Notes: a model not told the origin generated them from the sequence alone. A stretch of DNA of 64,000 nt from a phage (GCA_025823825.1 GCA_025823825.1_4720.1); one strand, 5' to 3'; shown: positions 3,379 through 59,802, counted from the stretch's first letter. Numbers and translations are program-made.

Positions 3379-3393
3379 AAAGCGTTATTCCTC

Positions 3394-5785: not shown

Positions 5786-5892
5786 TTGGGACTCCTACGT
5801 AGGAAAATCTTGGCGGGTGATCATGTCCGCCATTTACCTTCTGAACCGTTGATTCAGAAGTCAAAAGATAACCGGATACCAATGCCATAAAA

Positions 5893-5924
5893 CCTTCCTC
5901 CAACCCAACAGGGAAGGAGGAAGG
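5893..5924. repeat. GC-rich extragenic hairpin element (CCTTCCTCC-N14-GGAGGAAGG)
   Basis: 9-bp perfect stem, loop AACCCAACAGGGAA, flanked by GCCATAA...TTATGC; between co-oriented minus genes. Confidence 0.6.
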
Positions 5925-5934
5925 GATATAGTGG

Positions 5935-7224: not shown

Positions 7225-7233
7225 GTTAGTTCC

Positions 7234-11479: not shown

Positions 11480-11518
11480 GAGTGAGCACCTATGCTATTT
11501 CGAAACAGGTTGCGAGTG

Positions 11519-12625
11519 TTAACGAATCTGTGGGACGTTTCCGGTACGGAGCGCCTGGAGGATCGTCAGGAGATCGGAACCCGAGGTTGACGAACTGTTG
11601 GATTTTTCCAGTTGCTTGAAGCTTACGGTGGTCCCTTGATCCAAGCTGTGGAAATAGAAGGTCACCATCTCTTCAGCTTCGTCGATGATGATCAACTGCA
11701 TTGCGAGGGCTTCAGCCATGACTTTCTGACGTGTGTTATAGTCAGATAAACGACGTCCGATCTTACGCTCGATGGCTTCCTGGTTAGCCTTAGAGATGAT
11801 ATAGGTGGAGGCGATTGCTCCAGAAGAAGGGATCTTTGTGCTCGCTGCAGCTTTTGCGGCATTGATGCGCGCAGCATTAACAGCCTTGCGGATACCCTCT
11901 TTATCCATACGTGAGATTCGTTTATGCTCACGAACCAGATCGCTAAGCAGGATCATATCGCTCCAGAAAGACAGCTCACCAGCCATCATGCGATGCCAAC
12001 GTGCTCGCCAGGTGTTCTGTGGGCCACCGATCGCTAAAATCGCTGCAAGCACTTCCGCCGGTGAACTCGCGATACGCATGCTGATGTTCAATGGCATTTT
12101 CATCGTTGCCTGACCATCGGTCAGCGTCACGGTTAAGAACTTGCCGGTGACCGCGTTCGCATCTTTGTTCAGCAATTCGATCGCTGCGTCGCTGGCTCCA
12201 ACATCGGTGCTATTTTTTTGTTTCCCCAGCAGGTTGAATCCTTTGTCATCAAGGAAAACAAGGCTTTTGCTATCCGCACTTTCCAGTGCTAATTTGACAG
12301 CCTTATCCATCAGATTAGCGTTACGATTTGGGTTCACACGACCCAGCGTTTTATCGACACTGATATTACCCACCTGCATGATGGTGTTCAACGCCAGTAA
12401 ATAGAACCCGGTATACATGTTTTCAGCGGTGCGCATGCAGTTGCCTAACGCATTGCGTGCGTCGCTATAATACAACTCACGTTCAAAGATCAGCGGTGCG
12501 ATAACGCGTGAAGGTTGTGAGAGTTCAACCAGCGAACCTGGCTGGATAAGTTTATTAACTTCGTAGACTTTAGCGATACCGGACGCAACAACGTTAACAG
12601 CGTCGGCAATTTCTGATGCTACCAT
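11519..12625 (-). CDS. hypothetical protein (368 aa)
   Basis: ATG with AAGGA RBS; start is only about 34 nt from the divergently oriented start at 12660. Confidence 0.75.
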   Translation of the reverse strand: MVASEIADAVNVVASGIAKVYEVNKLIQPGSLVELSQPSRVIAPLIFERELYYSDARNALGNCMRTAENMYTGFYLLALNTIMQVGNISVDKTLGRVNPNRNANLMDKAVKLALESADSKSLVFLDDKGFNLLGKQKNSTDVGASDAAIELLNKDANAVTGKFLTVTLTDGQATMKMPLNISMRIASSPAEVLAAILAIGGPQNTWRARWHRMMAGELSFWSDMILLSDLVREHKRISRMDKEGIRKAVNAARINAAKAAASTKIPSSGAIASTYIISKANQEAIERKIGRRLSDYNTRQKVMAEALAMQLIIIDEAEEMVTFYFHSLDQGTTVSFKQLEKSNSSSTSGSDLLTILQALRTGNVPQIR

Positions 12626-12659
12626 ATTGAAATCCTTATTTACAAATAAAGGAAAGAAA

Positions 12660-13865
12660 ATGTCTAATTACTACGACCAAGCTATTCAAACCATTCAGGA
12701 GAATAATGCGTCGTTAACACCCGAAGCTGTGGAGGCAGCGGGCAATGCGGTGTTATTCACTGATTCGGATTGGGCAATAGCGCGGAAGAATATTCGTACC
12801 AGTGTCGGTCAAGGGACATACGAGGACAGTATCGCCAGACGGTATCGGAATGTGTCACCTATTCCAGGGAACAGCCCGATTCCGATTAACCGCGATCATG
12901 CCGGTATTACCTTCTTTACACGACCTAATTTACATCTTACCGACGCGAACTTAAAACGAGATCGACGTTTGTGGTCGTTACGCACGGATAACCCTAACAG
13001 TATTCAGGCTGTTGTCCGCGACTACTTGGACCCTGTGGGTGCCAGAAAGCGGAACCATCGAGGACGTGCCATCGTCGATGAGCGCAATCCATTCATAAGT
13101 ATACTGACGGACAACCTGACGGATATCAGCGGTTTCAATGACATGGAAATGCAGGTCTATCAGGGCAAACCGGGATTACGCCAAGAAACCGTTGTGATGG
13201 CTGACGGTTCAGTGGATATGTTTCAACCCTATAACCTGAACGCGACGTTCAAGAACATCATGGGTAACCCCATCATGTTCCTTCATTATATTTGGTTGAT
13301 TTACATCGCTGGTGTGCATAATGGCGAACTGACGCCAAGCCCTCAGGCCATCATTGATAATGAGATGGATTACTGGACAAGATGTTATCGTATCATCTTG
13401 GATCCGACTGGGATGTATGTTCGTTATATCTTCGCACCGACCGCGATGTTTCCTGTCGGACTACCGATTGGTAATATGGCCAACTACAGCATCGATAAAC
13501 CCTTCACGCAAGATAACGAACGTATCACTATTCCATACCAAGCGGTTGGTAACAACGCATTTGATGAGATTCTGAAGGATGAATTCAATCGACTTGTCCT
13601 GATGTTCTATTACGGTGAGAACGATACCCGTACGTTCCTTGAAGATGAGGAGTTGGTACCTATCTCACCCTACGAGCGTCGAATCATGTCGTATCGTGTC
13701 GATATGTATCCATTTATTCATCCGTTGACCTCAGAGCTTCTTTGGTTCGTACCCGCTGATGATTACAACGAATTCTATCTGGATCTTGAGCCGTCGGCGT
13801 TACCACCGGATACGTTCAGTCGCGATCTTGTCCGTACCACCATTCCGCAAAATTACGAGGGATAA
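12660..13865 (+). CDS. hypothetical protein (401 aa from ATG; track start 12627 is TTG)
   Basis: ATG preceded by AAAGGAAAG; first gene of a two-gene plus-strand island. Confidence 0.75.
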   Translation: MSNYYDQAIQTIQENNASLTPEAVEAAGNAVLFTDSDWAIARKNIRTSVGQGTYEDSIARRYRNVSPIPGNSPIPINRDHAGITFFTRPNLHLTDANLKRDRRLWSLRTDNPNSIQAVVRDYLDPVGARKRNHRGRAIVDERNPFISILTDNLTDISGFNDMEMQVYQGKPGLRQETVVMADGSVDMFQPYNLNATFKNIMGNPIMFLHYIWLIYIAGVHNGELTPSPQAIIDNEMDYWTRCYRIILDPTGMYVRYIFAPTAMFPVGLPIGNMANYSIDKPFTQDNERITIPYQAVGNNAFDEILKDEFNRLVLMFYYGENDTRTFLEDEELVPISPYERRIMSYRVDMYPFIHPLTSELLWFVPADDYNEFYLDLEPSALPPDTFSRDLVRTTIPQNYEG

Positions 13866-26333: not shown

Positions 26334-26359
26334 ATCAAGTATGTTGATCCTCGTTTAAC

Positions 26360-26430
26360 AAAAAAAGAAAACGCATGCGAAGCCCCTCCCCCTGGCGGAA
26401 GCCGGAGGGAGGGGTGGAGGTTTTATGCGT
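26360..26430. terminator. putative bidirectional intrinsic terminator between convergent PolB-fragment gene and 26433-26879
   Basis: Hairpin CCCCTCCC-N16-GGGAGGGG flanked by T-rich tracts on both strands (TTTTATGCGTTTTTAATTATT on plus; GCGTTTTCTTTTTTTG on minus). Confidence 0.6.
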
Positions 26431-26432
26431 TT

Positions 26433-26879
26433 TTAATTATTGCTGCTGGGGTTATCGCCCGGATTATATTCGATGCTGTAGGCGACGTCGCGGTCTGTCG
26501 TATGAACGACAAGCGTGACGGGGAAATCATAATGCGCGGTTTTGTCTCGAACGAACGGGGTAAAGAGATCCGTATAACGTATTAAGTCTTCCCTGGTGTA
26601 ATCGGAAGGGAAGAAGGCATCGATGGTTATTGAATCTTCATAGAGGCGTATGATCAGCTTATCCAGAAGGTTGCTATATTGGTTAGCTGGGGTGACGTTC
26701 AGGTGACAGAAGTCACCGTCTTCTGCTTCTCGCAATACCCATACCGTGGTATCCTGTAACGTATTTTCAAGGATCTCGAAAATGCAGTTTGCTGTAAGTC
26801 TTAGTTTATTTGTTACTTCATGGTTAGGGGAATAATGCTCACGAATGTTTTTCACTGCGTCTTTGATAGAGAAAGTCAT
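26433..26879 (-). CDS. small hypothetical protein, paralog family A (149 aa from internal ATG)
   Basis: Internal ATG (MTFSIKD) with AAAGGAG 9 nt upstream; C-terminal motif HYDFPVTLVVH...EYNPGD shared with 28869, 29394, 28099 and 31238 genes. Confidence 0.6.
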   Translation of the reverse strand: MTFSIKDAVKNIREHYSPNHEVTNKLRLTANCIFEILENTLQDTTVWVLREAEDGDFCHLNVTPANQYSNLLDKLIIRLYEDSITIDAFFPSDYTREDLIRYTDLFTPFVRDKTAHYDFPVTLVVHTTDRDVAYSIEYNPGDNPSSNN

Positions 26880-26892
26880 TGCTGCTGCTCCT

Positions 26893-27186
26893 TTAAAAGA
26901 TATCAAGCCATGAGGATGGAGGAACCAGTTCGCTGGTAAAGTAATCGCCACTGATACCACTATCATCAAAGTGACGTTCGTTGTAACACTGGACGAGCTT
27001 ACCTCCACGTTCTTTCTGATACCATCCAAGGATACTATTAAGACCTCTGTCCACGCATTCGAATGCTTGAGTAATAACATCCTCAACGACGGAGGCTGCC
27101 GTGGGACCATTGAATAGACGATCTAAGCGCTTTTTCATCGATTTGGTTTTCTCGTTCATGATTTCTTTTCCTGTTATAATCGGCAT
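26893..27186 (-). CDS. small hypothetical protein (97 aa)
   Basis: ATG start; RBS candidates inside adjacent hairpin arm (GGAAGGG) or internal AGGAAAAG before a second ATG. Confidence 0.55.
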   Translation of the reverse strand: MPIITGKEIMNEKTKSMKKRLDRLFNGPTAASVVEDVITQAFECVDRGLNSILGWYQKERGGKLVQCYNERHFDDSGISGDYFTSELVPPSSWLDIF

Positions 27187-27190
27187 ACAA

Positions 27191-27222
27191 CCCTTCCCCG
27201 GCCTTGACGGCTAGGGAAGGGG
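27191..27222. repeat. GC-rich extragenic hairpin element, degenerate copy (CCCTTCCCC...GGGAAGGGG)
   Basis: Imperfect stem, flanked by GGCATACAA...CTATGC. Confidence 0.45.
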
Positions 27223-27235
27223 CTATGCTACGTTG

Positions 27236-27634
27236 TTATGCTTCGCAATCAGCTGAAGGCGTCGCGCCTTTCTTACCAGCGATACGCCAAATCCGACACG
27301 CTGGGTAATGGTTAACCTCTAGAGAGCAAGGAATGTTATATTTCTCTTCCAGCGCATAAAGACATTTCGTTAGCTGCTCCAGCGCGTTCTCGTCGTGTCG
27401 TAACGCGTGGTGACCTAATCGATGTTGGTCGTTCTTTATATACGCCTCGAAGAGAACATGTTGGCGATGTACGCTGACGTTTACAGCCTCGAGTATAGCT
27501 TGGTCGAGCATACGACTAAAGCACATCAACGAGTCAGATACGTTTTCTCGCTTAACCAGATCGATCATGGCGGGAATATACGAATGGTCGATGTTATCGA
27601 TGACCGCTTTAGCGACGGAATCAGCAACGTTCAT
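27236..27634 (-). CDS. small hypothetical protein, paralog family B (132 aa from internal ATG; track start is GTG)
   Basis: N-terminus MNVADSVAKAVIDNIDH aligns with MSIVESIVKAVNDNIDH of 27671-28066; shared C-terminal EEKYNIP(C/F)SLEVN. Confidence 0.65.
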   Translation of the reverse strand: MNVADSVAKAVIDNIDHSYIPAMIDLVKRENVSDSLMCFSRMLDQAILEAVNVSVHRQHVLFEAYIKNDQHRLGHHALRHDENALEQLTKCLYALEEKYNIPCSLEVNHYPACRIWRIAGKKGATPSADCEA

Positions 27635-27670
27635 CTTTTTAATCCCTAGTTTGTTATTGATCACGTATAT

Positions 27671-28066
27671 TTACTCTTTGACGTCAGTTGTCGTTTCGAC
27701 ATGCTTCTCACTACTGACGTACCAGAGCAGGTACGTTGGGAAAAGATTGACCTCTAAGCTAAATGGGATATTGTATTTCTCTTCCATTTTGCAGAGATGT
27801 TCTTTAAGTAAATTTCTCGCGTCTCTGTCACCACGAACAGAGTGCCAGTCTAGTTCTTTGTTCTCCTTTACCAGGATCTCTACGATGATACGTTGCTCGT
27901 GAACCTCGGTTTTCACAGCGGCAAGTAAATCGCTGCTATCAAAACGGGTAAAACGAATGTATGAACCAGGTGTTTTTTCTTGTTTAATAATATCGATCAT
28001 GGTAGAAATGCGCGGATGATCGATGTTGTCGTTAACAGCTTTAACGATGGATTCTACAATGCTCAT
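27671..28066 (-). CDS. small hypothetical protein, paralog family B (131 aa)
   Basis: ATG with AAGGA RBS; tandem duplicate of 27236-27634. Confidence 0.7.
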   Translation of the reverse strand: MSIVESIVKAVNDNIDHPRISTMIDIIKQEKTPGSYIRFTRFDSSDLLAAVKTEVHEQRIIVEILVKENKELDWHSVRGDRDARNLLKEHLCKMEEKYNIPFSLEVNLFPTYLLWYVSSEKHVETTTDVKE

Positions 28067-28098
28067 TTTTTATCCTTAATGTTATCGATTTGGAAATA

Positions 28099-28866
28099 TT
28101 ACTTATTTTTGCTTTCTTTATAGACAGTTGTTACCCACGATGGGAAAGCCGGATGGAAACAGAGCGTGAACGTAACTGTCGTATCGTATTTAAACGCACA
28201 GTTCACTAACCGGGTATCTAACGTTTTCCTTAATCCGTCATCATCGTTATCGATGATGGTCATATCTCTTAATATCCCAAGCACGTTAACGCCATCGGGT
28301 GTCTGGGTTACGACAAGTCGTCGTAATGGCCCGCATGTATAGTCACGTACAAATCCTTTCTTCGGGTCCGATACCCTGTTTAACGCATCGTGATTTTTGA
28401 TGAATTCATCGGCGATACAATAGGTTTGTTCCCTTGCTTTATCGGGATCGTATTCTGCTAATAGTTCCTTCGTGTCGAACGTTATCATGTTATTATCATT
28501 CGATTCAGAAGGGAAACATAAAACTAAACGAACAGGGTATTCGTATTGATCTGTTCTTGTTTCGAAAGCATTAGCTAGACACGGCTTGTATGCCTTTGCG
28601 TCGACATTGTCCAAACATGGATGCAATAATGCATGAATAACGGCACCATCGTCAGTTAAACCGAATTCCAGAAATTGTACCCTATCAGTATCCGCTACGG
28701 TTTTCTGAAGGTACGCTTTACCGTTAACAATATCGGTATCCCACATATCGTCGTTTAACGATTCTTCAAACTTATCGAATATATGGTTTACGAGATTGAC
28801 GAGTTCATCAATACGGCACTGTTGGTTGAATTCGATTAATCGTTGAACTTTATCTTTGATAGACAT
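28099..28866 (-). CDS. hypothetical protein, family A-related with internally duplicated motif (255 aa)
   Basis: Contains two copies of the family A strand motif (QYEYPVRLVLCF and KYDTTVTFTLCF). Confidence 0.7.
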   Translation of the reverse strand: MSIKDKVQRLIEFNQQCRIDELVNLVNHIFDKFEESLNDDMWDTDIVNGKAYLQKTVADTDRVQFLEFGLTDDGAVIHALLHPCLDNVDAKAYKPCLANAFETRTDQYEYPVRLVLCFPSESNDNNMITFDTKELLAEYDPDKAREQTYCIADEFIKNHDALNRVSDPKKGFVRDYTCGPLRRLVVTQTPDGVNVLGILRDMTIIDNDDDGLRKTLDTRLVNCAFKYDTTVTFTLCFHPAFPSWVTTVYKESKNK

Positions 28867-28868
28867 GA

Positions 28869-29327
28869 TTACCCATTAGCTCCTTCTTCGTCTGGAGAGT
28901 ATTCCATCGTGTAGAATTCATAACCATCGGAAAACTTGAGTGTTAATGTAATAGGGAAATCGCACGGCATAGCTGATTTCGTAAATGCGTTATTAGCAAC
29001 ATCGGCCAACCGACGTATAGCATCAGTCCCGCTGACGCTGAACGGTAGTTGTATGTTGATAAGGATGCGGTGCTTGTAAACATGGAAAACAACGGTACTG
29101 TCAAGATAAACGCTATGGAACGGTATTGTTGGGATGCGTTCCACGATGGTAAAATACGTCCCGTCATTATCGCTATGTCCCACCGACCAAATATCGGATT
29201 TGCGTAGATTTTGTTTGAGAGATTCGATGCTTCGAGTGACGGTCTCATCAACAGGCGTGACGTAAGTGTCTTTATGCGAGTCGAAAAGTTCGTTGACGTT
29301 AGATTCGAATGAATACATTGTTGCCAT
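28869..29327 (-). CDS. small hypothetical protein, paralog family A (152 aa)
   Basis: ATG with GAGGTAG RBS; C-terminal PCDFPITLTLKFSDGYEFYTMEYSPDEEG. Confidence 0.7.
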   Translation of the reverse strand: MATMYSFESNVNELFDSHKDTYVTPVDETVTRSIESLKQNLRKSDIWSVGHSDNDGTYFTIVERIPTIPFHSVYLDSTVVFHVYKHRILINIQLPFSVSGTDAIRRLADVANNAFTKSAMPCDFPITLTLKFSDGYEFYTMEYSPDEEGANG

Positions 29328-29393
29328 TATTCTACCTCAATGGTTTAACCGATACGTGCCCCACCTAACAAGGGACACGTTATCGTTGATTAA

Positions 29394-29888
29394 TTACTCT
29401 TCTGTGTTTTCATTATCGGGATCGTAGTGGAATTCGAACAGCCCTGAACCGTCGTGTCCGTTGATTGTTAGTATAACGGGCATATCGAATCCTCGGACGC
29501 GCGAATGAAAACATTGTGCTAATTTTAGTTTGGCGTATGCCGCTATTTCATTGACGGCAATACACGACTCACCTGTTATACTCAGTATAACGTCGATACT
29601 AACAACGTTGTCGTGCAACGCAAAACGCCAGCGATCGATACGATTATTATCTTTATCGGTTGTCTCGTTTACGAGATAGACTTTATCGTCAACCGACAAA
29701 GCGGGACTCCAGCAACGATCGTTTATTAAATTCGCCTGGAGTTTTAGTATCGTCTGATCGATAATATCCCAACACGTAACCAGCGTGGTGTCAGGCACTG
29801 AGTAGAGAAGGGCGTGCACTTTATCCTTTATTTTAAGTGCTTCCGCAGGACGTCCGCAAATACCATGCATTTCAACTTTCTTATTCAT
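29394..29888 (-). CDS. small hypothetical protein, paralog family A (164 aa from ATG; track start is GTG)
   Basis: C-terminal GFDMPVILTINGHDGSGLFEFHYDPDNEN matches family A motif. Confidence 0.65.
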   Translation of the reverse strand: MNKKVEMHGICGRPAEALKIKDKVHALLYSVPDTTLVTCWDIIDQTILKLQANLINDRCWSPALSVDDKVYLVNETTDKDNNRIDRWRFALHDNVVSIDVILSITGESCIAVNEIAAYAKLKLAQCFHSRVRGFDMPVILTINGHDGSGLFEFHYDPDNENTEE

Positions 29889-29931
29889 ATTCACTTCTTT
29901 CTTAATCTAAATGTTAGTTGGGGTGGGATGC

Positions 29932-30534
29932 TTACATGCTTTCTAGCATATTGACGATCATGGAACCCATACCGAAACTCGGTCTTTCACCGATGTACTC
30001 AGCAAGCTGGCGATGGACGTCTTTTGGATTTCCTTCTTCACCATCGGCATCGATGTAAACCGAAAAAGAAACCGAATCGGAATCCACGCTGATAACCAGA
30101 CGACGTTCATTGCGTTCCTTGAGCGTGTCGACGATAGATGCTTTCAGTACCGGGATCGCATTCATCGCGTGCAAGATATCTCCATCGGGTTTCGGCAGAT
30201 CGATCTTTTCTTTCAGGTCGATATTGATGTTGGTTACAATTGGGTTGAGGTCGACCTTGACGTAATCGTTAGGGTACATGCGAATAATCGCACGATCGAT
30301 ATCTGAACCGTAAAAGTCAACACGTGGCTTTAACACTTCTTTGTTTGGATCCATGTTTTCATCCATACCCGCCCGCAAGAAACGTTCTACGTTATCCAGT
30401 TCACGATAAACTGACGCTTCGATTTCTTTCAGATAGTTGGCTGCGGTTTCATGTTCTTTACGCAGCTCGTCTTTAAGGAGCTGTACGGTGGTTTCACTGG
30501 AACGAATGCTGTTCGCGAATTGGGTAATTGACAT
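29932..30534 (-). CDS. hypothetical protein (200 aa from internal ATG; track start is TTG)
   Basis: Internal ATG (MSITQF) with AAGGAA 7 nt upstream. Confidence 0.65.
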   Translation of the reverse strand: MSITQFANSIRSSETTVQLLKDELRKEHETAANYLKEIEASVYRELDNVERFLRAGMDENMDPNKEVLKPRVDFYGSDIDRAIIRMYPNDYVKVDLNPIVTNINIDLKEKIDLPKPDGDILHAMNAIPVLKASIVDTLKERNERRLVISVDSDSVSFSVYIDADGEEGNPKDVHRQLAEYIGERPSFGMGSMIVNMLESM

Positions 30535-30637
30535 ATCGAATTCCTTAAATTCTCTTGAGTTCAATTAATGATGAAAAGCTGTAAAAAAAAAAAAGGTGGG
30601 GCGAACCCCACCAAAACGTCAGACACACGCGGGAAAA

Positions 30638-31063
30638 TTAATTCAGTGATGCATATAAGGCATAACGACTGTAGATCTCAACCGCCGGTCCGTTATGCGT
30701 TAACAGACCGTCTCGGCTGTAATACTGGAAAAATGAATAACGTTTGTCGAAGTGATAAACAAAAGCAATGTCTTTGCCGTCAAAACCTGTGATGCGTGGT
30801 CTGTTTTTATCTAGCAATGCTTTGACTTTTAACAGTGTTGCCGCACGTGCTTTAACGTTAGGGATCAAGCCATCACAATCGATATAAACAGTGTAACCTG
30901 TTTCAGATGTTGCGACGGTCGTATTGCGATTGACGCGGAAGATTTTTGTTTCGTATGTACTATCTTCAAGAATTGGGTTTTGTTTTTCGTATTTTCGTTT
31001 ACGCAGAAATTCTACAACGGTGATATAGTTAGCGGTAATATGCCCGGTTATAGCTTGTATCAT
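30638..31063 (-). CDS. small hypothetical protein (141 aa), weak family A resemblance
   Basis: ATG with AAGAGGA RBS. Confidence 0.65.
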   Translation of the reverse strand: MIQAITGHITANYITVVEFLRKRKYEKQNPILEDSTYETKIFRVNRNTTVATSETGYTVYIDCDGLIPNVKARAATLLKVKALLDKNRPRITGFDGKDIAFVYHFDKRYSFFQYYSRDGLLTHNGPAVEIYSRYALYASLN

Positions 31064-31237
31064 CTTGACATCCTCTTATATCGGATTGGTTGCAATTGTC
31101 TTAAATAGATGATAAGATATTTTGCTCTTATCACTAAGGTAATGTAGTCGTGAAATAAACTGCGTTAACAAGAAATAAAAAACAGCATAGAAACCTCCTC
31201 CCCCATCCTTCAAGAGGACGGTGGGAAGAGGGAGAGA

Positions 31238-31639
31238 TTAAATGTCGTGGACGGCAATGCCGTTTAACCAGCAATACAGCTTAACGCGACACGGATACCG
31301 CTTCGTTGCAGCAACCATTTCATCACGTAAACGCTGGTAGATTTCATCCTGGTGTTCACGTTCAATGGGGTAATCAGCCCAACATTCGATCATGACGTCA
31401 CCATTCGTCAGAATCGTCGTACGCATCCTGTCCTGGATACGGCGGTCTTTCCCGGCGTTAGGGAAATACATTCCTTCAGTACGAATAAGGTCGCCGCAGG
31501 GCATGACTAACCATTCGTTCGTTTTGCCGGTATTCTTATAATCCATTACAGCTTGCATTGCGGTGTCAACGCTAAAAGAAACATAATTCCAAACGGATGT
31601 CCAACGATAGATTGCGGGTTGTTCGAGTGTTTCGTTCAT
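31238..31639 (-). CDS. small hypothetical protein (133 aa), family A-like C-terminus
   Basis: ATG with AGGAAAAG RBS; C-terminal RYPCRVKLYCWLNG resembles the family A strand motif. Confidence 0.65.
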   Translation of the reverse strand: MNETLEQPAIYRWTSVWNYVSFSVDTAMQAVMDYKNTGKTNEWLVMPCGDLIRTEGMYFPNAGKDRRIQDRMRTTILTNGDVMIECWADYPIEREHQDEIYQRLRDEMVAATKRYPCRVKLYCWLNGIAVHDI

Positions 31640-31852: not shown

Positions 31853-32479
31853 TTATGCAAAGCGACGCATGTAACCTGCCAGATAGTTACGCGTATCGAA
31901 GTAGGCAATTTCAGGAATTGCGATATTAAGGTCGATAGCACGGATTTCAACTTGGCGACGGCTTTCATCATAGATCGCATCCATCAGACGCAGTACTGTC
32001 AGGAAAGCCATGCGGGTATGGTAGTCCAGCGGCATGTTATCGATACCGCGATACAGATAACGGTTTGCGTTAAATGCCCCTTCGCTGTTATCTTTCCAGA
32101 TCTTCAGAATATCAGCAAAGGCGGTGCGGAAAACCTCAGGATTATCCACATCCAGTAACGCACGGAAAGCAGACATTAAAGACCGCTGATGACGGATCAA
32201 CGACTGCGGCGTTTGCGGCATGGTCGGACCCATTTCTTCCGCATATTTCTGGAACGGAGCAACCAGGGTTGCGGCACGAGAAGCCACGATAGAAACAGCA
32301 GGCGATTCTTTCACCGCCGGTTTCGCAGGCTTTTCTTCAACAACGGTTTCCTTCTTCTCAACAGCGACCGTTTCCGGCTGTGCTACAACATCACTAACCG
32401 GAGCATCTGCAACGGTGGTTTCTACCGCAGTAATCTCCTCGTCCATTTTTGCAGAACGTTGGTCTTTATTCTTGCTCAT
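31853..32479 (-). CDS. hypothetical protein (208 aa) with Lys/Glu/Pro/Val-rich N-terminal linker
   Basis: ATG with AAAGGAAA RBS. Confidence 0.7.
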   Translation of the reverse strand: MSKNKDQRSAKMDEEITAVETTVADAPVSDVVAQPETVAVEKKETVVEEKPAKPAVKESPAVSIVASRAATLVAPFQKYAEEMGPTMPQTPQSLIRHQRSLMSAFRALLDVDNPEVFRTAFADILKIWKDNSEGAFNANRYLYRGIDNMPLDYHTRMAFLTVLRLMDAIYDESRRQVEIRAIDLNIAIPEIAYFDTRNYLAGYMRRFA

Positions 32480-32504: not shown

Positions 32505-33806
32505 TTAACTAATATAAAGTTCAGGATCGTAAGGCGCTAACGATACACTGGCGTTATGCATTGCTTTCATCATAGTGTTCATGAAAACGTTGTTTACACC
32601 GGTGATCTCTGCCCCGATCGCGTCTGGGGTTGGAGCCATCGCGTTACCGCAACAGGTAGCACAGTATTCCAATGGGCCTGCTTTACAACGTTGAGGATCA
32701 CGTAACTTGATGGTCTGTCCTTCCAAGGAAGCAAGTAATTCAGCATCAATAAGTTTAAGCGCTGCGCCGTCGATCATGTAACGGCCGACAAGCAGCTTAT
32801 CTTTGATATGATCGCGGTTTACCGTGAACAGAATATGTTCGTGGGTACCACAGTCGTCCATCGTGATTTTAAGGTTCTGTGTCGCACGTTGTGATTCTTT
32901 CGCCGTCTGTCCCGCTAAAGCGGTCAGTGCGCCACGTGAGAACGAACCTGCACGTGCACTGTTGTTGTACTCCGCCCAATGGTCGACACGCATCCCTTCA
33001 GCCAGGCTGTGTGTGATAACGTTACGTTTACCAGGGTCAACGAAGTCGGCTTCAACCCCCATCATGATGTGTGTTTTCTTTCGAGTATTACCGAAACTCT
33101 TGCCTGGGTTAATATAGAACCCTTCCGATTCATCACCCTTAAAGGATTCCTTATCCATTTTGGTTAGCGTAGCTTCGAGTTTGATCAGTTCTTCAGGCGT
33201 GAACTTACCTTCCTCTTGTAAGCGTGCTAACTCTTTATCGCGATAGGCAATAATATCATCATCGACCGTTAACGCTTTATCGCTCATCGATGGGACAATT
33301 AAACGGTTGATAGCGGTTAACGCACTAATATTGTTGGTGAATTTCTTCACTTCGCTTGCGTACAGCGGGCCAATAGGACGTTCGTTAGGATCGGGTATCC
33401 CCTCTTCGGGATCGTCCGCTACGCGTGGCGCAATCAGTGATTCCAGTGTACCGCTGGTCAACCGTCCTGCCTGATATTCAATCTGAATACCGAAAGCATC
33501 ATAAAGGACGTACATATTGAACAACGCTTCACCGAAGGTTGTGGTGGTCGTATTCTTAACCGACGGTAGATCACCAGGTGCGAGCTCCAATGGCTCCCAG
33601 AAACTCAACAAGGGTTTTGTTGGCTCGGTTTCCCATTGATGTTCTTCACCGTCGATGGTAACCGTAACGACGTTACCTTGACGATGTAATTTGGGCTGAT
33701 ACTTCTCAGCACCACCTTCCGTAAAAGCAAACGCGTCGTTAATCCATTCAAGATAACGGTAGTGCCCTTCACGCATCGCGTAAAGGAAATATTCACGAGG
33801 TGTCAT
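32505..33806 (-). CDS. hypothetical protein (433 aa) with C-terminal Cys cluster (CKAGPLEYCATCCGN)
   Basis: ATG with AAAGGAG RBS; possible metal-binding cysteines; no named family recognised. Confidence 0.75.
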   Translation of the reverse strand: MTPREYFLYAMREGHYRYLEWINDAFAFTEGGAEKYQPKLHRQGNVVTVTIDGEEHQWETEPTKPLLSFWEPLELAPGDLPSVKNTTTTTFGEALFNMYVLYDAFGIQIEYQAGRLTSGTLESLIAPRVADDPEEGIPDPNERPIGPLYASEVKKFTNNISALTAINRLIVPSMSDKALTVDDDIIAYRDKELARLQEEGKFTPEELIKLEATLTKMDKESFKGDESEGFYINPGKSFGNTRKKTHIMMGVEADFVDPGKRNVITHSLAEGMRVDHWAEYNNSARAGSFSRGALTALAGQTAKESQRATQNLKITMDDCGTHEHILFTVNRDHIKDKLLVGRYMIDGAALKLIDAELLASLEGQTIKLRDPQRCKAGPLEYCATCCGNAMAPTPDAIGAEITGVNNVFMNTMMKAMHNASVSLAPYDPELYIS

Positions 33807-38917: not shown

Positions 38918-41530
38918 TTAAGCGTCTGGTGTAAAATCAAAAGGAATGTCCGTACGAATGATATCATAACGTTTTCCTAGGAAATAAAACTCTTCGGGAA
39001 CCTGGCCGGGAATAATGCTATCGCCGATGAACTGCGGATACGCCCAGATGTACTGAGTGAGTCCTTCGAACTTATCCAGGTTATTTGCGTGGTTACCCAT
39101 GATACGTTTCCAGAGTTCGCGTTTATACGGTGTTTTAACATCGAATCCATAAAGCGGTGCAAGATCTTCACCAGGAACAAATCCCAGGTAATAATGGATC
39201 TGACTAACCGGGAAACCAAGCGTATCTCGCGGAATGGTGATCGCTTGCTCAGCCTTGGTGACATGCGTTTCAATAATCCAGTCGTAGCACTCCGAATAGA
39301 ACCGATCGAATTTCTCTGGGTTATACCACGCTTTGGGAAGATTCAGTTTCTCCGTGAACGCGTTCGACATGATCGTCGGCAAGAACGGAAGAACGCCGGT
39401 TTTGATCTGCGTGTATTTCGATTTTACCCGGTTAACCAAATTCCAGCAACTGTATCCTAATTGGTCGTTACAAAACTCAACGTAGAGATCGTAGTCACCA
39501 CCGGATAACGGGTTGTTAATATCACCGATGTCTGCGGCGTATTTGTTGGGATATCGGTTATTGAAAGCCAGTTTGGTTTGGTAATCGTAGATACACGGTT
39601 TGTTGTTCGCTGTATTGATCCACCACCAGGGTTCACCTATTTGCACACAAATGTCCTGGACATGGGGGTAGATGATATCAGCAAACGCGGTTAACACGTC
39701 CCCTAACCACGCCATCGCCTGTTGGTTACATGGAGACAGCAACCAGGACGGTGGTGTATATCCGGTTGCGGCGATGTTTCCTTCCCAATCCTGCTGCGCC
39801 CACTCGAACGGGCATGCTGTACTCATCAATTCGTAACTTAAACTGATGGTGACAGAGAAATGGTGTTTTGCAGCATATGCGGCGAAAGCTTCATGCCACG
39901 CGATACAGGGTGGATTTAATACATCCGTGGTGTTCACCAGTAACTTACCCGCACTTGGCGTCCAGACAGTATCGTAGAAATGCGACATTCCAACATAATG
40001 CACTAATTCATCTTGATACCCCGCATAAACCAGGTTTTCAAATACGCGCTCCGGCGTGATGTTGTAATGGTCATCGTAAGCGGTTATCGCACGAAGTTCG
40101 TGTGGTGTACAATGATGGCGATTAACCGTCATTTCTTGATACACCCCATCGATAGGAAGAATCTCGAGGGTTAAACCGAGGTCGATTGGCGTTTCCAGAT
40201 AGGTCGTTTCAGTCGCATCTTCCTTATAATGTCGAGAACTCATGCTGAACATCAACGACGTTACCGATTCGAGTTCGATAGGCTCGTCAGCATAGAACCC
40301 CGCCATTGCGTCATTGAAATCGATCGTTACGATTGCGCTTCTACCGTCTTCAGAGACATCGGTGGCGTATCGGGTTAATGAGATATACTGACGGCTATCG
40401 TCTTTGTGTACGATGGTTAGAACCGGCGGGTTTTCGGTATCTGCAAAGTTACGCTGATCGCCAGTAAACGTGATCTTCGCTTTAAAGATCAAACCGAATA
40501 ACGACGTCATGGGATCATACGCAATACAACCGTGATCCAGCGTATCCGTTGTCCGCCATTCTATCCCGACCAACCCGTTAGCGGTATGGCATCGCATATA
40601 CGCATTAAGGACCATGTCTTCACTGACAACCGCGAAGTTCTCTGTTGACTGACCGTTGATAATCCAATACATCGGTTGCCAGAGGTTACGCGTACCTTTT
40701 GCGTAGCGGTAGGTTGGTGCGCCTTTAGGGTTGCCATTATTGAGATGGAATACGGCAGTACCTTGATAATGGTCGTTCGTATTAATCGGAACACTGTAAG
40801 CATCACCGAGATCCGTACGTTCGACCTTCGTGACTGTTGCGTTTTCAAATAACCCACGTAGCGCCGGTAAACCGATATCTTCAGGCGCGTTTTCTCGACG
40901 AATCGCATCCGCGATGCGGTGGGCTAAGGCAGGGTAAATGACCTCACCCTGCTGTAGGTTTGCAAGACCTACAAAGCGATCGGGGTCGATGCTAGCAATC
41001 AATAACTCGACATCACCCTTCGTTCTATCGTCGTTAAGATATTTCAGTCCGGTAAGGTCAAGATGCTGAATAAGCGACAACAGGTTGTATTTACGGTTTT
41101 CAACAGTTAGTACAAGATCGCCTGCCCAAACCAAACTTCCCTCATCCGCTGTTACTTTAACGGATTGTCGGCCTGTGGTAGACGTTGTTGTCGTTTTATT
41201 TAATTGTCCTTGTAGGAAGTCGGTTGCGAGGTCAAAGGCAATGCCGTAACGGTCAGCGACCGCTTGCATGATTTCACGTAACTGGGTATCTTCTTCAATG
41301 ATAATCTTGACAGGTATTCCCAAGAACGCTTTAGCGAGGTCTCGTTTAACCAACGAGACGAATACGGATTTGTAGTATCGACTTCCATCTTTCCCTTTAA
41401 AAAGAATGGAGGTTGTTTCGGGTGCCGATAGAACACGTGCAAATTCAACATCGTCGAAAGTAAGAGAAAGTCCGTTTTTCTCGTTGGTTAATCTTAGTAT
41501 TTCATTTTGCGCGGTTTCATGTAACTTCAT
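38918..41530 (-). CDS. putative receptor-binding protein/tailspike (870 aa) with shared N-terminal anchor domain
   Basis: N-terminal 110 aa (RDLAKAFLGIPVKII...ADRYGIAFDL) conserved with N-termini of 47425-47952 and 48108-49862 genes; divergent C-terminal region. Confidence 0.7.
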   Translation of the reverse strand: MKLHETAQNEILRLTNEKNGLSLTFDDVEFARVLSAPETTSILFKGKDGSRYYKSVFVSLVKRDLAKAFLGIPVKIIIEEDTQLREIMQAVADRYGIAFDLATDFLQGQLNKTTTTSTTGRQSVKVTADEGSLVWAGDLVLTVENRKYNLLSLIQHLDLTGLKYLNDDRTKGDVELLIASIDPDRFVGLANLQQGEVIYPALAHRIADAIRRENAPEDIGLPALRGLFENATVTKVERTDLGDAYSVPINTNDHYQGTAVFHLNNGNPKGAPTYRYAKGTRNLWQPMYWIINGQSTENFAVVSEDMVLNAYMRCHTANGLVGIEWRTTDTLDHGCIAYDPMTSLFGLIFKAKITFTGDQRNFADTENPPVLTIVHKDDSRQYISLTRYATDVSEDGRSAIVTIDFNDAMAGFYADEPIELESVTSLMFSMSSRHYKEDATETTYLETPIDLGLTLEILPIDGVYQEMTVNRHHCTPHELRAITAYDDHYNITPERVFENLVYAGYQDELVHYVGMSHFYDTVWTPSAGKLLVNTTDVLNPPCIAWHEAFAAYAAKHHFSVTISLSYELMSTACPFEWAQQDWEGNIAATGYTPPSWLLSPCNQQAMAWLGDVLTAFADIIYPHVQDICVQIGEPWWWINTANNKPCIYDYQTKLAFNNRYPNKYAADIGDINNPLSGGDYDLYVEFCNDQLGYSCWNLVNRVKSKYTQIKTGVLPFLPTIMSNAFTEKLNLPKAWYNPEKFDRFYSECYDWIIETHVTKAEQAITIPRDTLGFPVSQIHYYLGFVPGEDLAPLYGFDVKTPYKRELWKRIMGNHANNLDKFEGLTQYIWAYPQFIGDSIIPGQVPEEFYFLGKRYDIIRTDIPFDFTPDA

Positions 41531-41552: not shown

Positions 41553-42194
41553 TTAGATGTACTGCTTACCGCCCACGAAGGAAGTTAACCAGTTCCCGCT
41601 GACGAGTTGTGATACCCAACCTGGAACGGCTCTACCATTCTGGCTCATGATGTTACCACACCAACCAGGGAATCCGGGACGGATGTAATAGAAAGTTAAA
41701 TTGTAGAGATGGCAATTCCATACCGCAACGTTATGTTTACCAGAAACCGCTTTAAAGATAAACGCGACAGGTAACGGAGACGATAACAATTCGGTCACAG
41801 GGACGGCTGACCAGTTCGCATTCGCGTTCCATGGTTGCCAGGTATGGCTACGCGAGTCACCGTTAACGTTACCGTTGCTACCGCGTCCGCCCGCGTTCCA
41901 CCAAAGCGATGGACTCATGTTCTTAAGTGAGGTAAATTGCTGTGGTGGAATATTCGGAATGATAACAGGGTTGGTACCTTGTCCGTGTTTCTTTTCTTTT
42001 GCGTTCACATAGCCGTTTATCGATTCCAGGTATTTGGTACCAGGATAATTGTTCTGGACTTGTGTCGCAATATCACGAACATCGAACGTCCAGCAGATCA
42101 TGGTGTTGTAGTAAGCATCGGTGTTGTCGTACCATGCGTTACCATCTTGTAAACGTGCGCCACTATTCGGTGTTTTATCTGTGTTTATAGCCAT
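41553..42194 (-). CDS. hypothetical protein (213 aa), paralog of 42306-43022
   Basis: C-terminal IRPGFPGWCGNIMSQNGRAVPGWVSQLVSGNWLTSFVGGKQY nearly identical to neighbour. Confidence 0.7.
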   Translation of the reverse strand: MAINTDKTPNSGARLQDGNAWYDNTDAYYNTMICWTFDVRDIATQVQNNYPGTKYLESINGYVNAKEKKHGQGTNPVIIPNIPPQQFTSLKNMSPSLWWNAGGRGSNGNVNGDSRSHTWQPWNANANWSAVPVTELLSSPLPVAFIFKAVSGKHNVAVWNCHLYNLTFYYIRPGFPGWCGNIMSQNGRAVPGWVSQLVSGNWLTSFVGGKQYI

Positions 42195-42305
42195 AGTGTT
42201 GTCCTATACTGCGATGATTGAGATATCGGATGCCGGATGTGTGTTGCCATCAGGTGGTACGTACAGAAACACCCACAGATAAAACAGTAGCTTCTCTAAC
42301 TTCAA

Positions 42306-43022
42306 TTAAATTGAAGTTAGATATTGTTTACCTCCAACAAACGACGTTAACCAATTACCTGAAACAAGTTGCGATGCCCAGCCAGGCACTGCCCTACCGT
42401 TCTGGCTCATCACGTTACCTGCCCATCCCGGAAAACCCGGTCGGAAAATATATACTTGAATATGTGTTAAAGCGTTATCATTACCACTGCCAACAGCAAC
42501 GTTACGACTCCCAGATGACGGGAAATATTCTTTTAAGAACAGAGGATCGGTTGCTAATAAAGATGCGGGCCAAGGGTTCGCGGATGCATCAACATCGAAT
42601 TCGGTCCATCGCCATTTACGTCCCGTGTCGAACCATGTCGATGTACCACCACCCCTCACGGCAAGATTGCGCGCATCACGGACATTATAAATTGATTCGA
42701 TGTTACGCCATCCACCTTTTGCAGCGTTTGCTGCATAGCAAACCGCATTACCACCATTCTTCTTCTCGTAAACGGTTCGTTTGATATGAACACGGTCGAT
42801 GAACGCTTCACCGTATTTGTTGACGAGCGTTTGTGCGATATCACGAAGATCGTGCATGTGAAAAGCGATGTCTTCGTTATGGAACCATGTTGTCTGGTTC
42901 CAGACGGTACCGTTTGGTTCGGCACACATCGATCGGATATTGTTGCGTTGATTAATCGCGATAAAACCCATTGTATACCTCGTTCCTATTCTCAAAAAGG
43001 AAATTTCATACGATGACGCCAT
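42306..43022 (-). CDS. hypothetical protein (238 aa from internal ATG), paralog of 41553-42194
   Basis: Internal ATG (MASSYEISF); the upstream residues of the track ORF are a translated hairpin element whose arm GGAGGAGC serves as SD. Confidence 0.7.
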   Translation of the reverse strand: MASSYEISFLRIGTRYTMGFIAINQRNNIRSMCAEPNGTVWNQTTWFHNEDIAFHMHDLRDIAQTLVNKYGEAFIDRVHIKRTVYEKKNGGNAVCYAANAAKGGWRNIESIYNVRDARNLAVRGGGTSTWFDTGRKWRWTEFDVDASANPWPASLLATDPLFLKEYFPSSGSRNVAVGSGNDNALTHIQVYIFRPGFPGWAGNVMSQNGRAVPGWASQLVSGNWLTSFVGGKQYLTSI

Positions 43023-43026
43023 AGCA

Positions 43027-43056
43027 GCTCCTCCTTCCCTTACGGGTTGGAGGAGC
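43027..43056. repeat. GC-rich hairpin element whose arm provides the SD of 42306-43022
   Basis: Minus-strand reading GCTCCTCC-AACCCGTAAGGGAA-GGAGGAGC-TGCT-ATG. Confidence 0.6.
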
Positions 43057-43064
43057 ATACTTAA

Positions 43065-47424: not shown

Positions 47425-47952
47425 TTATCCCGGGTAAATAGTGATGGTGTCACCAACGATAGTTGTAGCACCGGCGTAAAGATACGCTGGTGATGCCTCA
47501 CGTTGGTTTGTCACGATAAGATCCAGTCTCCCACGCCAAACCACGGAGGTATTCGCGATGGGAATCGAGATCTTCTTGGAAGTATCGTCACGAAAATTAA
47601 TGGCGGTAGCAAGGGTAACTGAATCAAAATCAACGTCGGGTTCAAAGTTGAATCCGTATTGATCTGAAATAGCTTGAATAACCGCTCTTATGGTTGTTGT
47701 TTCAACCGACTCCAAAACGATTTTTATCGGTATTCCTAGAAATGCTTTCGCGATATCACGTCGTGTGTAAGTGATAAAACTTTCACCACACCACCTTGTT
47801 CCTTCATTTGCTGTGACGATCACTTTTGCCCTGTTAGCACCAGAACTCCCATCCAGGGTTAAAGTGAGATCGGAGTTGCTGAATACACTACCGTTACGTT
47901 GGTTTATCAACGTAATAAGTTCGTCTTTCCATGGTGGGTAAAGTGAACGCAT
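47425..47952 (-). CDS. short protein (175 aa) made mostly of the shared RBP N-terminal anchor domain
   Basis: Internal ATG (MRSLYPPWKDELITLINQRNG) preceded by GGAGGAGGG; aligns with N-termini of 38918 and 48108 genes (RRDIAKAFLGIPIKIV...DQYGFNFE). Confidence 0.65.
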   Translation of the reverse strand: MRSLYPPWKDELITLINQRNGSVFSNSDLTLTLDGSSGANRAKVIVTANEGTRWCGESFITYTRRDIAKAFLGIPIKIVLESVETTTIRAVIQAISDQYGFNFEPDVDFDSVTLATAINFRDDTSKKISIPIANTSVVWRGRLDLIVTNQREASPAYLYAGATTIVGDTITIYPG

Positions 47953-48107: not shown

Positions 48108-49862
48108 TTATGCTGCTACATACCCAGGCCAACGTTCTCTTGGCCAGTTTGTTGCGCCCTGTCCAACGTTGTCCTTACCAGAAGTTACATTACTTACATC
48201 CCAACCACTAAGATCCTGGTTAAATGCGGTGTTGTTACGCATCATGAGGTCGATATTACGTAATGATTGGGTATTCCAGCCGGAAATGTCTTGGTTGAAT
48301 GCCGTGTTGTAAGCAAACATGTTAACAACGTTTTGTAATTTTGAAGTGTTCCAGCCGCTAATATCGCCATTGAACTGCATGTTCGAGAACATACTGCTAG
48401 CATCGATAAGACTATCTGTTTTCCAGTTAACCAGCTTGTTCTCATCAAGTGCGTTGCAACTACTGAACATGTAACTCATGTTGTTAACTTTGGATACATC
48501 CCATTTATCTAACCCGTTACCAACGAACTCGTAACAAGCTTGGAACATCCAGCTCATGTCGGTAACCTGGCACACATTCCATTTGCTAAAGTCGAGGTTG
48601 AGTTTTGCGCATCCGGAGAAAGTTTTATACATACTGGTGATACGACTAACATCCCATTCTTGAATGTTAGGATCATTAAGTATAGATAAGAATTGGAACA
48701 ATCCGTCTAACGACGTCCATTTCTCTGGAATACGGTTTGGTACTGTACGGAGCGATGAAAGGTTATTGGTTGACGGAGAGCGGAACATACCGTTATCCCA
48801 ATTTACGATTTCCGTAATGTTGTACCCACGGATCGTTTGGCGTCCATTACCATTATACACAGACCCTGTTGCAGTTATTGTATATTCGTTTGTATCAGCA
48901 TACGTATATTCAGCCTGTGTAGGCCACTCACCTATTACATCCCTATTCCCATCACCCCAGTCAATGGAAATATCTATCCAACCATCAAGATCTAGGGTAA
49001 CGGTCCCGCCATTGGTCTTCAGGATGTATTTACCTGCATTGTCGGTATAATAACAAACAATCATCGCACCGTACAGGTTACCAATTTGCCAATCATCCTT
49101 TTGAGTTACCGCGATTTGTGCTGTACCACGCTGTAAGAAAAGTACCGTACGGTTCTCGTCAGTCTGTAGTGCGGTTAGTGCTTGAGTCTTATCATCGTCG
49201 GTAATTTCACCGGCTTCCATTAAAGCACTTAACATTCTTTCGAAGTACTCGATAGGCAACTGAGGTCCTACCGACATATCAACTGATGGAACAGTGAGAT
49301 CATCCAATGCTGCTGCCGTTGCGAGGACTAATGATCCCTTGGCGGTGTCTGTTTCTTGGAGGTAACGCAGTCCCGTAATCTGGTACGCTTGAATGATTGT
49401 AATCAGATCCAGTGTATCGTTAATGACCTGTACTTGTAAATGTCCAGACCAAACATAGCTGCTTTCAGCAATCGGTAATTCGACCGACTGAATACCCGAC
49501 GTTTCAAAACTGATCTTCTTATTAAGATCGGCTTCCAGGAAATCAACAGCTAGGTCGAAATTTATACCGTACTTCTCAGCGATGGAATCTACAATGTTCC
49601 TGAAAGCAACATCGGTACTTACGATGAAACGTAACGGGATCCCGGTGAACGCGTTGGCAATATCTCGACGAACATACGTGAGCGACTGCTCGAAGAAATA
49701 AGGACTGTTATCTCCAGGTTTGATGGTTACCTGGCATACTTCAGGATGTTCAGCTGGAATGAAAGATTCGAATTTAACGTCGGTTTCCTTCAACGATAGC
49801 ATGTTCTTCCGGTTTACCAACGCCAGAAGATCAGCTTTCCACCCAGGATAAACTGTAGACAT
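48108..49862 (-). CDS. putative receptor-binding protein (585 aa): shared N-terminal anchor domain plus C-terminal DUF285/BspA-type repeats
   Basis: Internal ATG (MSTVYPGWKADLLALVNRKN) with GGAG RBS; C-terminal repeats ...MFxxxxxFNQDISGWNTxxxxNxxxMF... typical of the Mycoplasma DUF285 / BspA-like family. Confidence 0.7.
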   Translation of the reverse strand: MSTVYPGWKADLLALVNRKNMLSLKETDVKFESFIPAEHPEVCQVTIKPGDNSPYFFEQSLTYVRRDIANAFTGIPLRFIVSTDVAFRNIVDSIAEKYGINFDLAVDFLEADLNKKISFETSGIQSVELPIAESSYVWSGHLQVQVINDTLDLITIIQAYQITGLRYLQETDTAKGSLVLATAAALDDLTVPSVDMSVGPQLPIEYFERMLSALMEAGEITDDDKTQALTALQTDENRTVLFLQRGTAQIAVTQKDDWQIGNLYGAMIVCYYTDNAGKYILKTNGGTVTLDLDGWIDISIDWGDGNRDVIGEWPTQAEYTYADTNEYTITATGSVYNGNGRQTIRGYNITEIVNWDNGMFRSPSTNNLSSLRTVPNRIPEKWTSLDGLFQFLSILNDPNIQEWDVSRITSMYKTFSGCAKLNLDFSKWNVCQVTDMSWMFQACYEFVGNGLDKWDVSKVNNMSYMFSSCNALDENKLVNWKTDSLIDASSMFSNMQFNGDISGWNTSKLQNVVNMFAYNTAFNQDISGWNTQSLRNIDLMMRNNTAFNQDLSGWDVSNVTSGKDNVGQGATNWPRERWPGYVAA

Positions 49863-50063
49863 AAGCACTCCAATCATGGGGGCGAACGCCCCCCATCAGT
49901 TAAATGATCGTTTACGTCGCGTAAGGGTAATATAATTGCTGTGAGCCATATCAGAAGTTCACAACATTCTGAATCATAAGGTTACGTCGTTGGAAACAAA
50001 CCGATACAGATTCTTCATAGAACATTGAGATGATGGAAACCTAATTCGTACCATGAAAGCCGC

Positions 50064-59268: not shown

Positions 59269-59802
59269 TTAAGCTCCTTTGTGTTTTACGGACGATGTTA
59301 ACCAGGACGATCTTACCGTGAAACCCTCAGACTCGTAGAACGCCTGGGCTTCATCATTGTCGGCGCGAACATCCAGACCGATAGAATGGCCACCGCACTG
59401 GTAAGCGATGTTGCGCGCCTCATTCATCAAGGCATGGCCGATCCCGCGTCCGCGATATTCGGGTTTTACAATAATCGATGTAACGTCATGAATGCCCATA
59501 TGGCTCTCTGTATTCACTTCCAAGAGGCCTACCGGCATCGAAGCGATAGCATCGATCATAACGACCAACATTGCAGTATCTGGTAAACGCTTTTCTAATT
59601 CTAAAGCATCGTACTCGCGTTTTAAATCGGGGATATTCTCAAACATAAACGTGGTAGCCCATGCCTCTGATTCTACATCGTCGAGAATACGGTACAGCTC
59701 ACGAATCTGTCGTTTATGTGGGTAAAGGTGTGGATCGGCAGCCGTTGAGGCGATAACGCAATAGAACGGTCGTTCATTAATAACTACTGTTTTGATGCTC
59801 AT
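59269..59802 (-). CDS. GNAT-family N-acetyltransferase (177 aa)
   Basis: Acetyl-CoA binding motif VKPEYRGRGIGHALM and C-terminal AQAFYESEGF; ATGA overlap with upstream gene. Confidence 0.8.
   Translation of the reverse strand: MSIKTVVINERPFYCVIASTAADPHLYPHKRQIRELYRILDDVESEAWATTFMFENIPDLKREYDALELEKRLPDTAMLVVMIDAIASMPVGLLEVNTESHMGIHDVTSIIVKPEYRGRGIGHALMNEARNIAYQCGGHSIGLDVRADNDEAQAFYESEGFTVRSSWLTSSVKHKGA

Follow-up and report, generated by a model that had tools for sequence, protein, structure and literature searches.

A stretch of phage DNA of 64,000 nucleotides (GCA_025823825.1; hereafter the window) carries a series of small genes on its minus strand, and those between positions 26433 and 29888 are placed by profile comparison and structure modelling in a tandem array of one putative lineage-specific superfamily. 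The array evolves by birth and death, through tandem duplication, fusion, deletion, in-register recombination and the replacement of alleles by divergent ones. Sequence similarity assigns the window to a Goslar-like nucleus-forming jumbo phage of the Chimalliviridae, and its segment 26000–32000 shares 91.5% identity with Escherichia phage vB_EcoM_Goslar (Goslarvirus), with only 64% of the length matched. A putative counter-defence or host-interaction role of the array is plausible. Tentatively, and with confidence somewhat short of even, we read the genes as an accordion-like family of non-enzymatic binding proteins specific to this lineage, whose paralogues would bind different, most likely host, factors.

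Families A and B and their predicted fold

The genes of the window and of ten related loci, later sixteen (given L numbers below), were sorted into orthogroups, which were compared profile against profile with hhalign. Genes are named here by their lower coordinate in the window. Family A comprises 26433, 28869, 29394 and the N-terminal half of 28099 (residues 1–142), which BLASTP joins at E values of 1e-4 to 1e-5 in a 19-sequence database. The hhalign probabilities among these four orthogroups are 83–98%, and each of them scores 99.6–99.9% against the merged family A profile. The strand motif [YFC][DE][FYM]P[VI][TRI]L, which precedes a hairpin and an acidic (E/H)Y-x-P-D/G tail, was matched four times in the six-frame open reading frames (ORFs) of the window against 0.006 expected, once in each family A gene. 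Residues V, L, W and P are invariant and K, D and Y near-invariant in the family, and the fold-defining residues are retained between paralogues that are only ~20% identical. The sequence-only reading had extended family A beyond these four members to 31238 and possibly 30638. The motif is absent from both, and their hhalign probabilities (0.1% and 0.3%, respectively) equal those of unrelated controls, so the extension is not supported by sequence. The gene at 29932, the orthologue of Goslar gp74, was likewise rejected as a member at the level of sequence (0.6% against the merged profile). On these comparisons 29932, 30638 and 31238 appear to be unrelated singletons, conserved and Goslarvirus-specific, that behave like core genes of the lineage.

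Two genes of the related loci join an extended family A, namely a gp71-like gene and a gene for a protein of 169 amino acids (aa), the latter being linked by hhalign to gp71 at 86% and to gp72 at 87%. Both have left traces in the window. The ORF at 26893–27186 consists of the N-terminal 82 aa of the gp71-like gene joined to the last 15 aa of the 169-aa gene, and blastn junction mapping relates it to the arrangement in locus L005 by a deletion of ~693 bp. This mapping identifies the ORF as a deletion remnant of two extended family A members.

The description of 27236 and 27671 as direct tandem duplicates, forming family B, was borne out by an identity of 38% over 131 aa (E 2e-31) and by the presence of the motifs that had been quoted for them. 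What the same reading had missed is that families A and B share one predicted fold. AlphaFold2 models were obtained for 27671 (predicted local distance difference test score, pLDDT, 83.5; predicted template modelling score, pTM, 0.76) and for the 255-aa protein encoded by 28099 (mean pLDDT 80, pTM 0.57). The former is predicted to fold as alpha-beta3-alpha-beta2, and both halves of the latter have the same predicted element order, alpha-beta3(4)-alpha-beta2, in which a long N-terminal helix is followed by a three- or four-stranded meander, a helix and a beta hairpin. The top two PDB neighbours, 5cuk_A and 3npd_A, are common to both models, and the sole significant match of the 27671 model in a library of predicted viral structures is A0A482GHL3 (E 2.9e-6), which is Goslar gp73, a member of family A.

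Profile comparison points in the same direction. Merged family A is matched to family B at a probability of 64.7% (E 6e-5, 77 colinear columns) and to the C-terminal half of 28099 at 54.3% (E 1.3e-4, 95 colinear columns), both below the usual 90% level; the seven other groups and controls in the same comparison scored 0.1–1.2%. Families A and B also begin alike, with an N-terminal S-I-(K/V)-(D/E), and have a Y-x-Phi-P-Phi-(T/S)-L strand at equivalent places in the structure. Few residues are conserved throughout the superfamily, and these are hydrophobic or structural: V, L, W and the strand-motif P. From the shared models, the common PDB neighbours, the match to gp73 and the profile links, we conclude that family A, family B and the C-terminal domain of 28099 form one superfamily of predicted alpha-beta3-alpha-beta2 domains of 130–165 residues. 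The internal duplication that had been proposed for 28099 is moderately supported. It agrees with the same predicted fold in its two halves, and its sequence signal is weak: the N-terminal half is matched at 98% to the group of p148, the product of 26433, the C-terminal half reaches family A at the 54% given above, and the two halves compared alone score 4.9%.

Both PDB neighbours offer a resemblance of fold and no functional lead. The first, 5cuk_A, is the T3S4 domain of PscP/YscP, a ruler protein of type III secretion, and the second, 3npd_A, is PA3611, a secreted Pseudomonas protein of unknown function. Assignment of the array proteins to the T3S4 (YscP/PscP/FliK C-terminal) domain was rejected, as neither sequence membership nor a location at the C-terminus of a ruler protein was found.

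Known-family searches covered all ten proteins of the region or their profiles, and the earlier statement that none belongs to a nameable family stands: Pfam, PHROGs, PADLOC, NCBIfam and PDB sequence searches were all empty. Array members matched no known anti-defence protein by sequence or fold, and no marker gene, such as an aca-type regulator, was found. When 1.84 billion representative proteins were searched exhaustively with the profile, 15 matches came back; 14 are small or fragmentary, those read looking like Goslar-like family members, and the remaining one is a spurious repeat protein. A single-protein scan of IMG/VR gave only three loci. Relatives of the array family thus seem, across the databases searched, to be confined to Goslar-like phages. 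The proteins are already databased as 'hypothetical', and we found no published account of the family or its fold, of how A relates to B or of the island's dynamics; for Goslar gp70–76, the literature yielded nothing besides a virion proteomics table.

Plasticity and divergence of the island

Goslar gp72 and gp73 (QBO63865.1 and QBO63866.1) occupy the same position and strand as 28869 and 29394, and Goslar has only gp70–gp73 in this part of the island. Present in the window and not in Goslar are the 255-aa protein, the two family B genes and p148 (which some relatives carry at 37–79% identity); the reverse holds for gp70 and for an intact gp71. Of 50,697 phage records, only Goslar is matched by gp74, gp75 and gp76. 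Judged by the virion RNA polymerase (vRNAP) subunit (33% identity), the closest phage beyond the genus is Erwinia phage pEa_SNUABM_54 (L017), in which only a gp77-like gene lies between this subunit and a probable DNA polymerase. The Goslar-only matches of gp74–gp76 and this bare locus in the outside relative indicate that the entire gp70–gp76 interval is a Goslarvirus-specific island between conserved core genes. Upstream of its vRNAP subunit, at 2511–5562, pEa_SNUABM_54 carries six consecutive small genes (159–184 aa), none of which matches a window protein by BLASTP at E 0.01 or better.

The interval from gp73 to the polymerase gene is arranged in eight ways in the eight genomes in which the locus is fully spanned. 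Genes gp76, gp75, gp74, gp73 and at least one gp72-type gene are kept in every fully spanned locus. The variable part consists of a second gp72-type copy, the 255-aa protein, a 139-aa gene, gp71, the 169-aa gene, p148, gp70, the family B genes (zero to two) and two further small genes. In some genomes, two adjacent family A genes are fused and encode a 305-aa protein, and the N-terminal half of 28099 is a stand-alone 143-aa gene in L002. Two natural hybrid proteins were also found among database proteins of related Goslar-like contigs, one (P0102) with the N-terminal half of gp73 in register with the C-terminal half of the neighbouring 153-aa gp72-type paralogue, and the other (P0250) with an unrelated N-terminus and the C-terminus of p148. 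With its variable content, fusions, deletion chimera, hybrids and a divergence far above that of the flanks, the locus matches the sequence-only reading of rapidly duplicating small paralogues in an accessory locus.

Between the window and locus L013, the flanking genes are 94–99.5% identical, and identity is 83.5% for gp73, 63.8% for gp72 and 60.2% for the 255-aa protein. The ratio of nonsynonymous to synonymous divergence (dN/dS) in this comparison is mostly 0.12–0.67 in the array and 0.01–0.15 in most flanking genes. For the 255-aa protein, dN/dS is 0.23–0.28 at a synonymous divergence (dS) of ~1.2–1.5, and one near-identical array pair gives 1.42. As dN/dS stays below 1 even at saturating dS, the array genes are under purifying selection and functional. 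The paralogues are 20–40% identical, and a search for DNA-level repeats between array paralogues able to drive recombination found none, so the duplications are old. Duplication, fusion, deletion and exchange of copies between close relatives form a pattern expected of host-interaction or counter-defence genes.

Identical counterparts of window proteins occur in many draft assemblies labelled Escherichia coli, Salmonella and Shigella, on contigs of ~235–260 kb, and the segment 26300–30000 has no megablast match among 5,426 complete RefSeq E. coli genomes. Presence in draft assemblies together with absence from complete genomes agrees with a phage that persists without integrating and has been taken out of finished genomes or is absent from them. 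Goslar-like phages have been seen mostly as persistent infections of bacterial isolates (doi 10.1101/2024.12.31.630880), and the occurrence of identical proteins in draft assemblies fits this reported persistence.

Gene inventory, transcription signals and flanking genes

Twelve consecutive minus-strand genes had been counted at 26433–31639; the ORF inventory gives ten (Table 1). The long ORF at 26433–27110 most likely starts at the ATG at 26879, upstream of which lies an AGGAG ribosome-binding site, and the 148-aa product of this start is identical to a database protein in public assemblies. The array proteins are soluble and mostly acidic, with isoelectric points (pI) of 4.7–5.2 in family A and 5.6–6.0 in family B.

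Table 1. Features of the array, the rest of the island and its flanks, with window coordinates and the basis of each assignment.
Feature	Coordinates	Strand	Basis
DNA polymerase, family B-type, 583 aa	24582..26333	+	weak Pfam DNA_pol_B_exo1 match; Goslar annotation; related loci
GC-rich hairpin then T-run, between convergent polymerase gene and array	26334..26432	.	sequence read directly
Family A, p148, 148 aa, pI 4.7	26433..26879	-	hhalign 97–98% to gp72 and 255N (28099 N-terminal half) groups; motif YDFPVTL
Chimeric ORF, 97 aa	26893..27186	-	BLASTP; blastn junction mapping
Family B copy 1, 132 aa	27236..27634	-	38% identity to 27671; L003 and L005 orthologues 89–98%
Family B copy 2, 131 aa	27671..28066	-	AlphaFold2 model; hhalign to merged family A
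Two-domain protein, 255 aa	28099..28866	-	N-domain family A; C-domain divergent copy with same predicted fold
Family A, Goslar gp72 orthologue, 152 aa	28869..29327	-	87% identity; motif CDFPITL
Family A, Goslar gp73 orthologue, 164 aa	29394..29888	-	79% identity; motif FDMPVIL
Goslar gp74 orthologue, 200 aa	29932..30534	-	95.5% identity; synteny
Intrinsic terminator-like hairpin + T12, 3' of gp75 orthologue	30595..30612	-	sequence
Goslar gp75 orthologue, 141 aa, basic, pI 9.4	30638..31063	-	98.6% identity
Goslar gp76 orthologue, 133 aa	31238..31639	-	97.7% identity
Goslar gp77 orthologue	31853..32479	-	95% identity
Goslar gp78 orthologue	32505..33806	-	99.5% identity

The hairpin and T-run beyond the 3' end of the array are probably a bidirectional terminator that closes the array transcript. 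At the position equivalent to the hairpin behind the gp75 orthologue, a terminator is annotated in Goslar, and the gp76 orthologue also has a downstream hairpin and T-run. Given the terminators at 30595–30612 and 3' of 26433, the genes from 29932 through 26433 probably form a single transcription unit, with 29932 (gp74) as its first gene. Within this presumed operon, GC-rich hairpins without a T-run lie at 27187–27235, in the gap that separates 27236 from 26893, and at 29328–29393, in the gap that separates 29394 from 28869. Possible explanations are a function in RNA processing or stability, or scars left by recombination. A search for a shared promoter motif upstream of the array genes found no enriched k-mer except the ribosome-binding-site-like AAGGAAA, and sigma-70-like sites there were below shuffled expectation.

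The placement of the locus next to replication genes applies to one side, where the DNA polymerase gene lies. The opposite flank is formed by the orthologues of Goslar gp77, a capsid decoration protein, and gp78, a vRNAP subunit (doi 10.64898/2026.04.21.720040). The polymerase gene is unsplit (583 aa) in the window and in L009. In Goslar and most relatives, an HNH/NUMOD1 homing-endonuclease ORF splits it into a 499-aa part and a remainder (for comparison, L001 3172–4362 and L005 13761–14867); at 11505–13787, L015 instead has a 760-aa DUF7941 gene beside a 586-aa polymerase.

Further sets of paralogues are encoded elsewhere in the window, all on the minus strand. A second tandem family of small genes at 59799–62536 (168, 210, 133, 155 and 106 aa; BLASTP E 1e-4 to 2e-11) showed no relation to family A or B when profiles were compared. 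Three paralogous proteins of ~430 aa are encoded in tandem at 4484–8550, and the proteins of 870, 175 and 589 aa encoded at 38918–41530, 47425–47952 and 48108–49877 have a common N-terminal region of ~150–240 aa. A pair of paralogues of 213 and 250 aa is found at 41553–43058. These last three sets may be the window's counterparts of two virion families described for Goslar, PF12699 and DUF7941.

Possible roles of the array

In the binding-protein reading that we favour, the domain would be a non-enzymatic scaffold with a diversified surface, and the array proteins would work inside the infected cell and not in the virion. On this reading, the paralogues most likely each bind a host factor of their own, which would be an immune sensor or effector, or else a cellular machine that the phage redirects. 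Copies gained, lost or exchanged would then adapt the phage to whichever hosts it encounters among Escherichia, Salmonella and Shigella. Nucleus-forming jumbo phages are shielded from DNA-targeting immunity. It is also conceivable, although we consider it unlikely, that families A and B together are a toolkit in which each paralogue or fused domain neutralises a different host immune sensor or effector that still reaches such a phage. The targets would then be cytoplasmic protein- or RNA-sensing systems, for example Avs-type STAND proteins, abortive infection or RNA-targeting CRISPR (clustered regularly interspaced short palindromic repeats) systems, and allele exchange between co-resident persistent phages would set the host range over the three genera.

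Several observations weigh against the binding-protein reading. In all but one pair, dN/dS is below 1, and dS is strongly raised, which implies that recombinational exchange of old alleles accounts for much of the divergence, and for no less of it than positive selection in place. The island is not uniformly non-structural, since gp70, gp74 and gp71 are virion-associated in Goslar, and p148, the 255-aa protein and family B, which lack a Goslar orthologue, are not covered by the Goslar proteomics. The structure models were built on shallow alignments (20–28 sequences). Moreover, the several other paralogue sets in the window make the array less special, paralogy alone being unremarkable in this genome.

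The copy numbers available from published label-free proteomics of Goslar virions are ~110–260 per virion for gp70 (an island gene not in the window), ~5–12 for gp74, ~2.5–6 for gp71 and ~2–4 for gp76; gp72, gp73 and gp75 are each at <1 copy, with one peptide. Values below one copy resemble those of contaminating non-virion enzymes (RNA polymerase subunits), and such one-peptide values mean that the core family A proteins gp72 and gp73 are made, yet are not meaningful virion components. It is therefore distinctly unlikely that the array encodes packaged inner-body or ejected proteins that enter the cell with the DNA, like the paralogous PF12699 head proteins of PhiKZ-like phages, even though gp70 is abundant and gp74 and gp71 are detectable in Goslar virions, the flanking gp77 and gp78 are virion components and paralogous head-protein families are known in PhiKZ (PMC12676376). 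Besides the trace level of gp72 and gp73, the array proteins match neither PF12699 nor another Pfam family, and gp70 and gp74 are unrelated to the array family. The PF12699 inner-body proteins are likewise paralogous in chimallivirus genomes, and some members are dispensable; they differ in being larger and virion-abundant (Goslar gp58 and gp53), and the array was rejected as a part of this family.

The array proteins might instead serve the phage's own biology, as adaptors or regulators of the nucleus, import or assembly, as weapons or immunity between phages, or in superinfection exclusion or carrier-state control. We regard this as doubtful: the searches turned up nothing resembling a known factor of the nucleus, of import or of assembly, and most copies are dispensable in some natural genome, which is unusual for core machinery. 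On the other hand, Goslar-like phages are found almost only as persistent infections (doi 10.1101/2024.12.31.630880), the raised dS and the exchange of alleles are in keeping with related phages that often co-infect and recombine, and part of the family, gp73 and one or more gp72-type copies, is never missing from a fully spanned locus and so behaves as lineage core. Neutral baggage, that is, duplicates of a recombination-prone region that are tolerated and have no individual function, has a lower probability again than packaging in the virion. Copy number is freely variable, the truncated chimera at 26893–27186 is carried in the window, and dN/dS exceeds that of the flanks (to 0.67, with the single near-identical pair at 1.42). 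However, the ORFs are intact in dozens to hundreds of database members, dN/dS remains clearly below 1 at large dS in the 255-aa protein (0.23–0.28), fold-defining residues are kept between ~20%-identical paralogues, and peptides of gp72 and gp73 were detected. That the domain is a divergent nuclease of the PD-(D/E)XK type, with nucleic acid of the host or of a competitor as its substrate, is very improbable. The predicted element order is compatible with the alpha-beta-beta-beta-alpha-beta core of that type, but no D...(D/E)xK on the beta2-beta3 hairpin or other catalytic constellation is conserved, the structure scores are in the range of generic topology, and the best neighbours are non-enzymatic domains. 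The weak matches to such nucleases reflect shared topology, and this assignment was rejected.

The hyperplastic or accessory regions of large lytic phages, of which those of T4 are an example, likewise hold small lineage-specific ORFs between core blocks and vary in presence or absence and in copy number. Gene families also expand and contract in the genomic accordions of large DNA viruses, a concept reviewed in PMC13359090. The array differs from both in that most of its variable genes appear to belong to a single fold superfamily, and whereas poxvirus accordions are recent identical amplifications, the array copies are diverged and old. Phage anti-defence loci likewise encode small, often acidic, non-enzymatic proteins that are clustered, variable and narrow in range (PMC12676376), but no array member matches a known anti-defence protein. 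The array also resembles dispensable clusters that transposon mutagenesis revealed in PhiKZ and that the authors suspected, but did not show, to be anti-defence; only one anti-defence gene was known there among >200 dispensable genes (PMC12676376).

For Goslar-like phages, the array provides a short, defined list of counter-defence candidates in an E. coli system and may bear on the persistence of these phages in Enterobacteriaceae isolates. It also gives a family and a predicted-fold description to proteins that have so far been only 'hypothetical'. Even without a host-interaction role, the array would be a clear case of birth-and-death evolution in a phage gene family.

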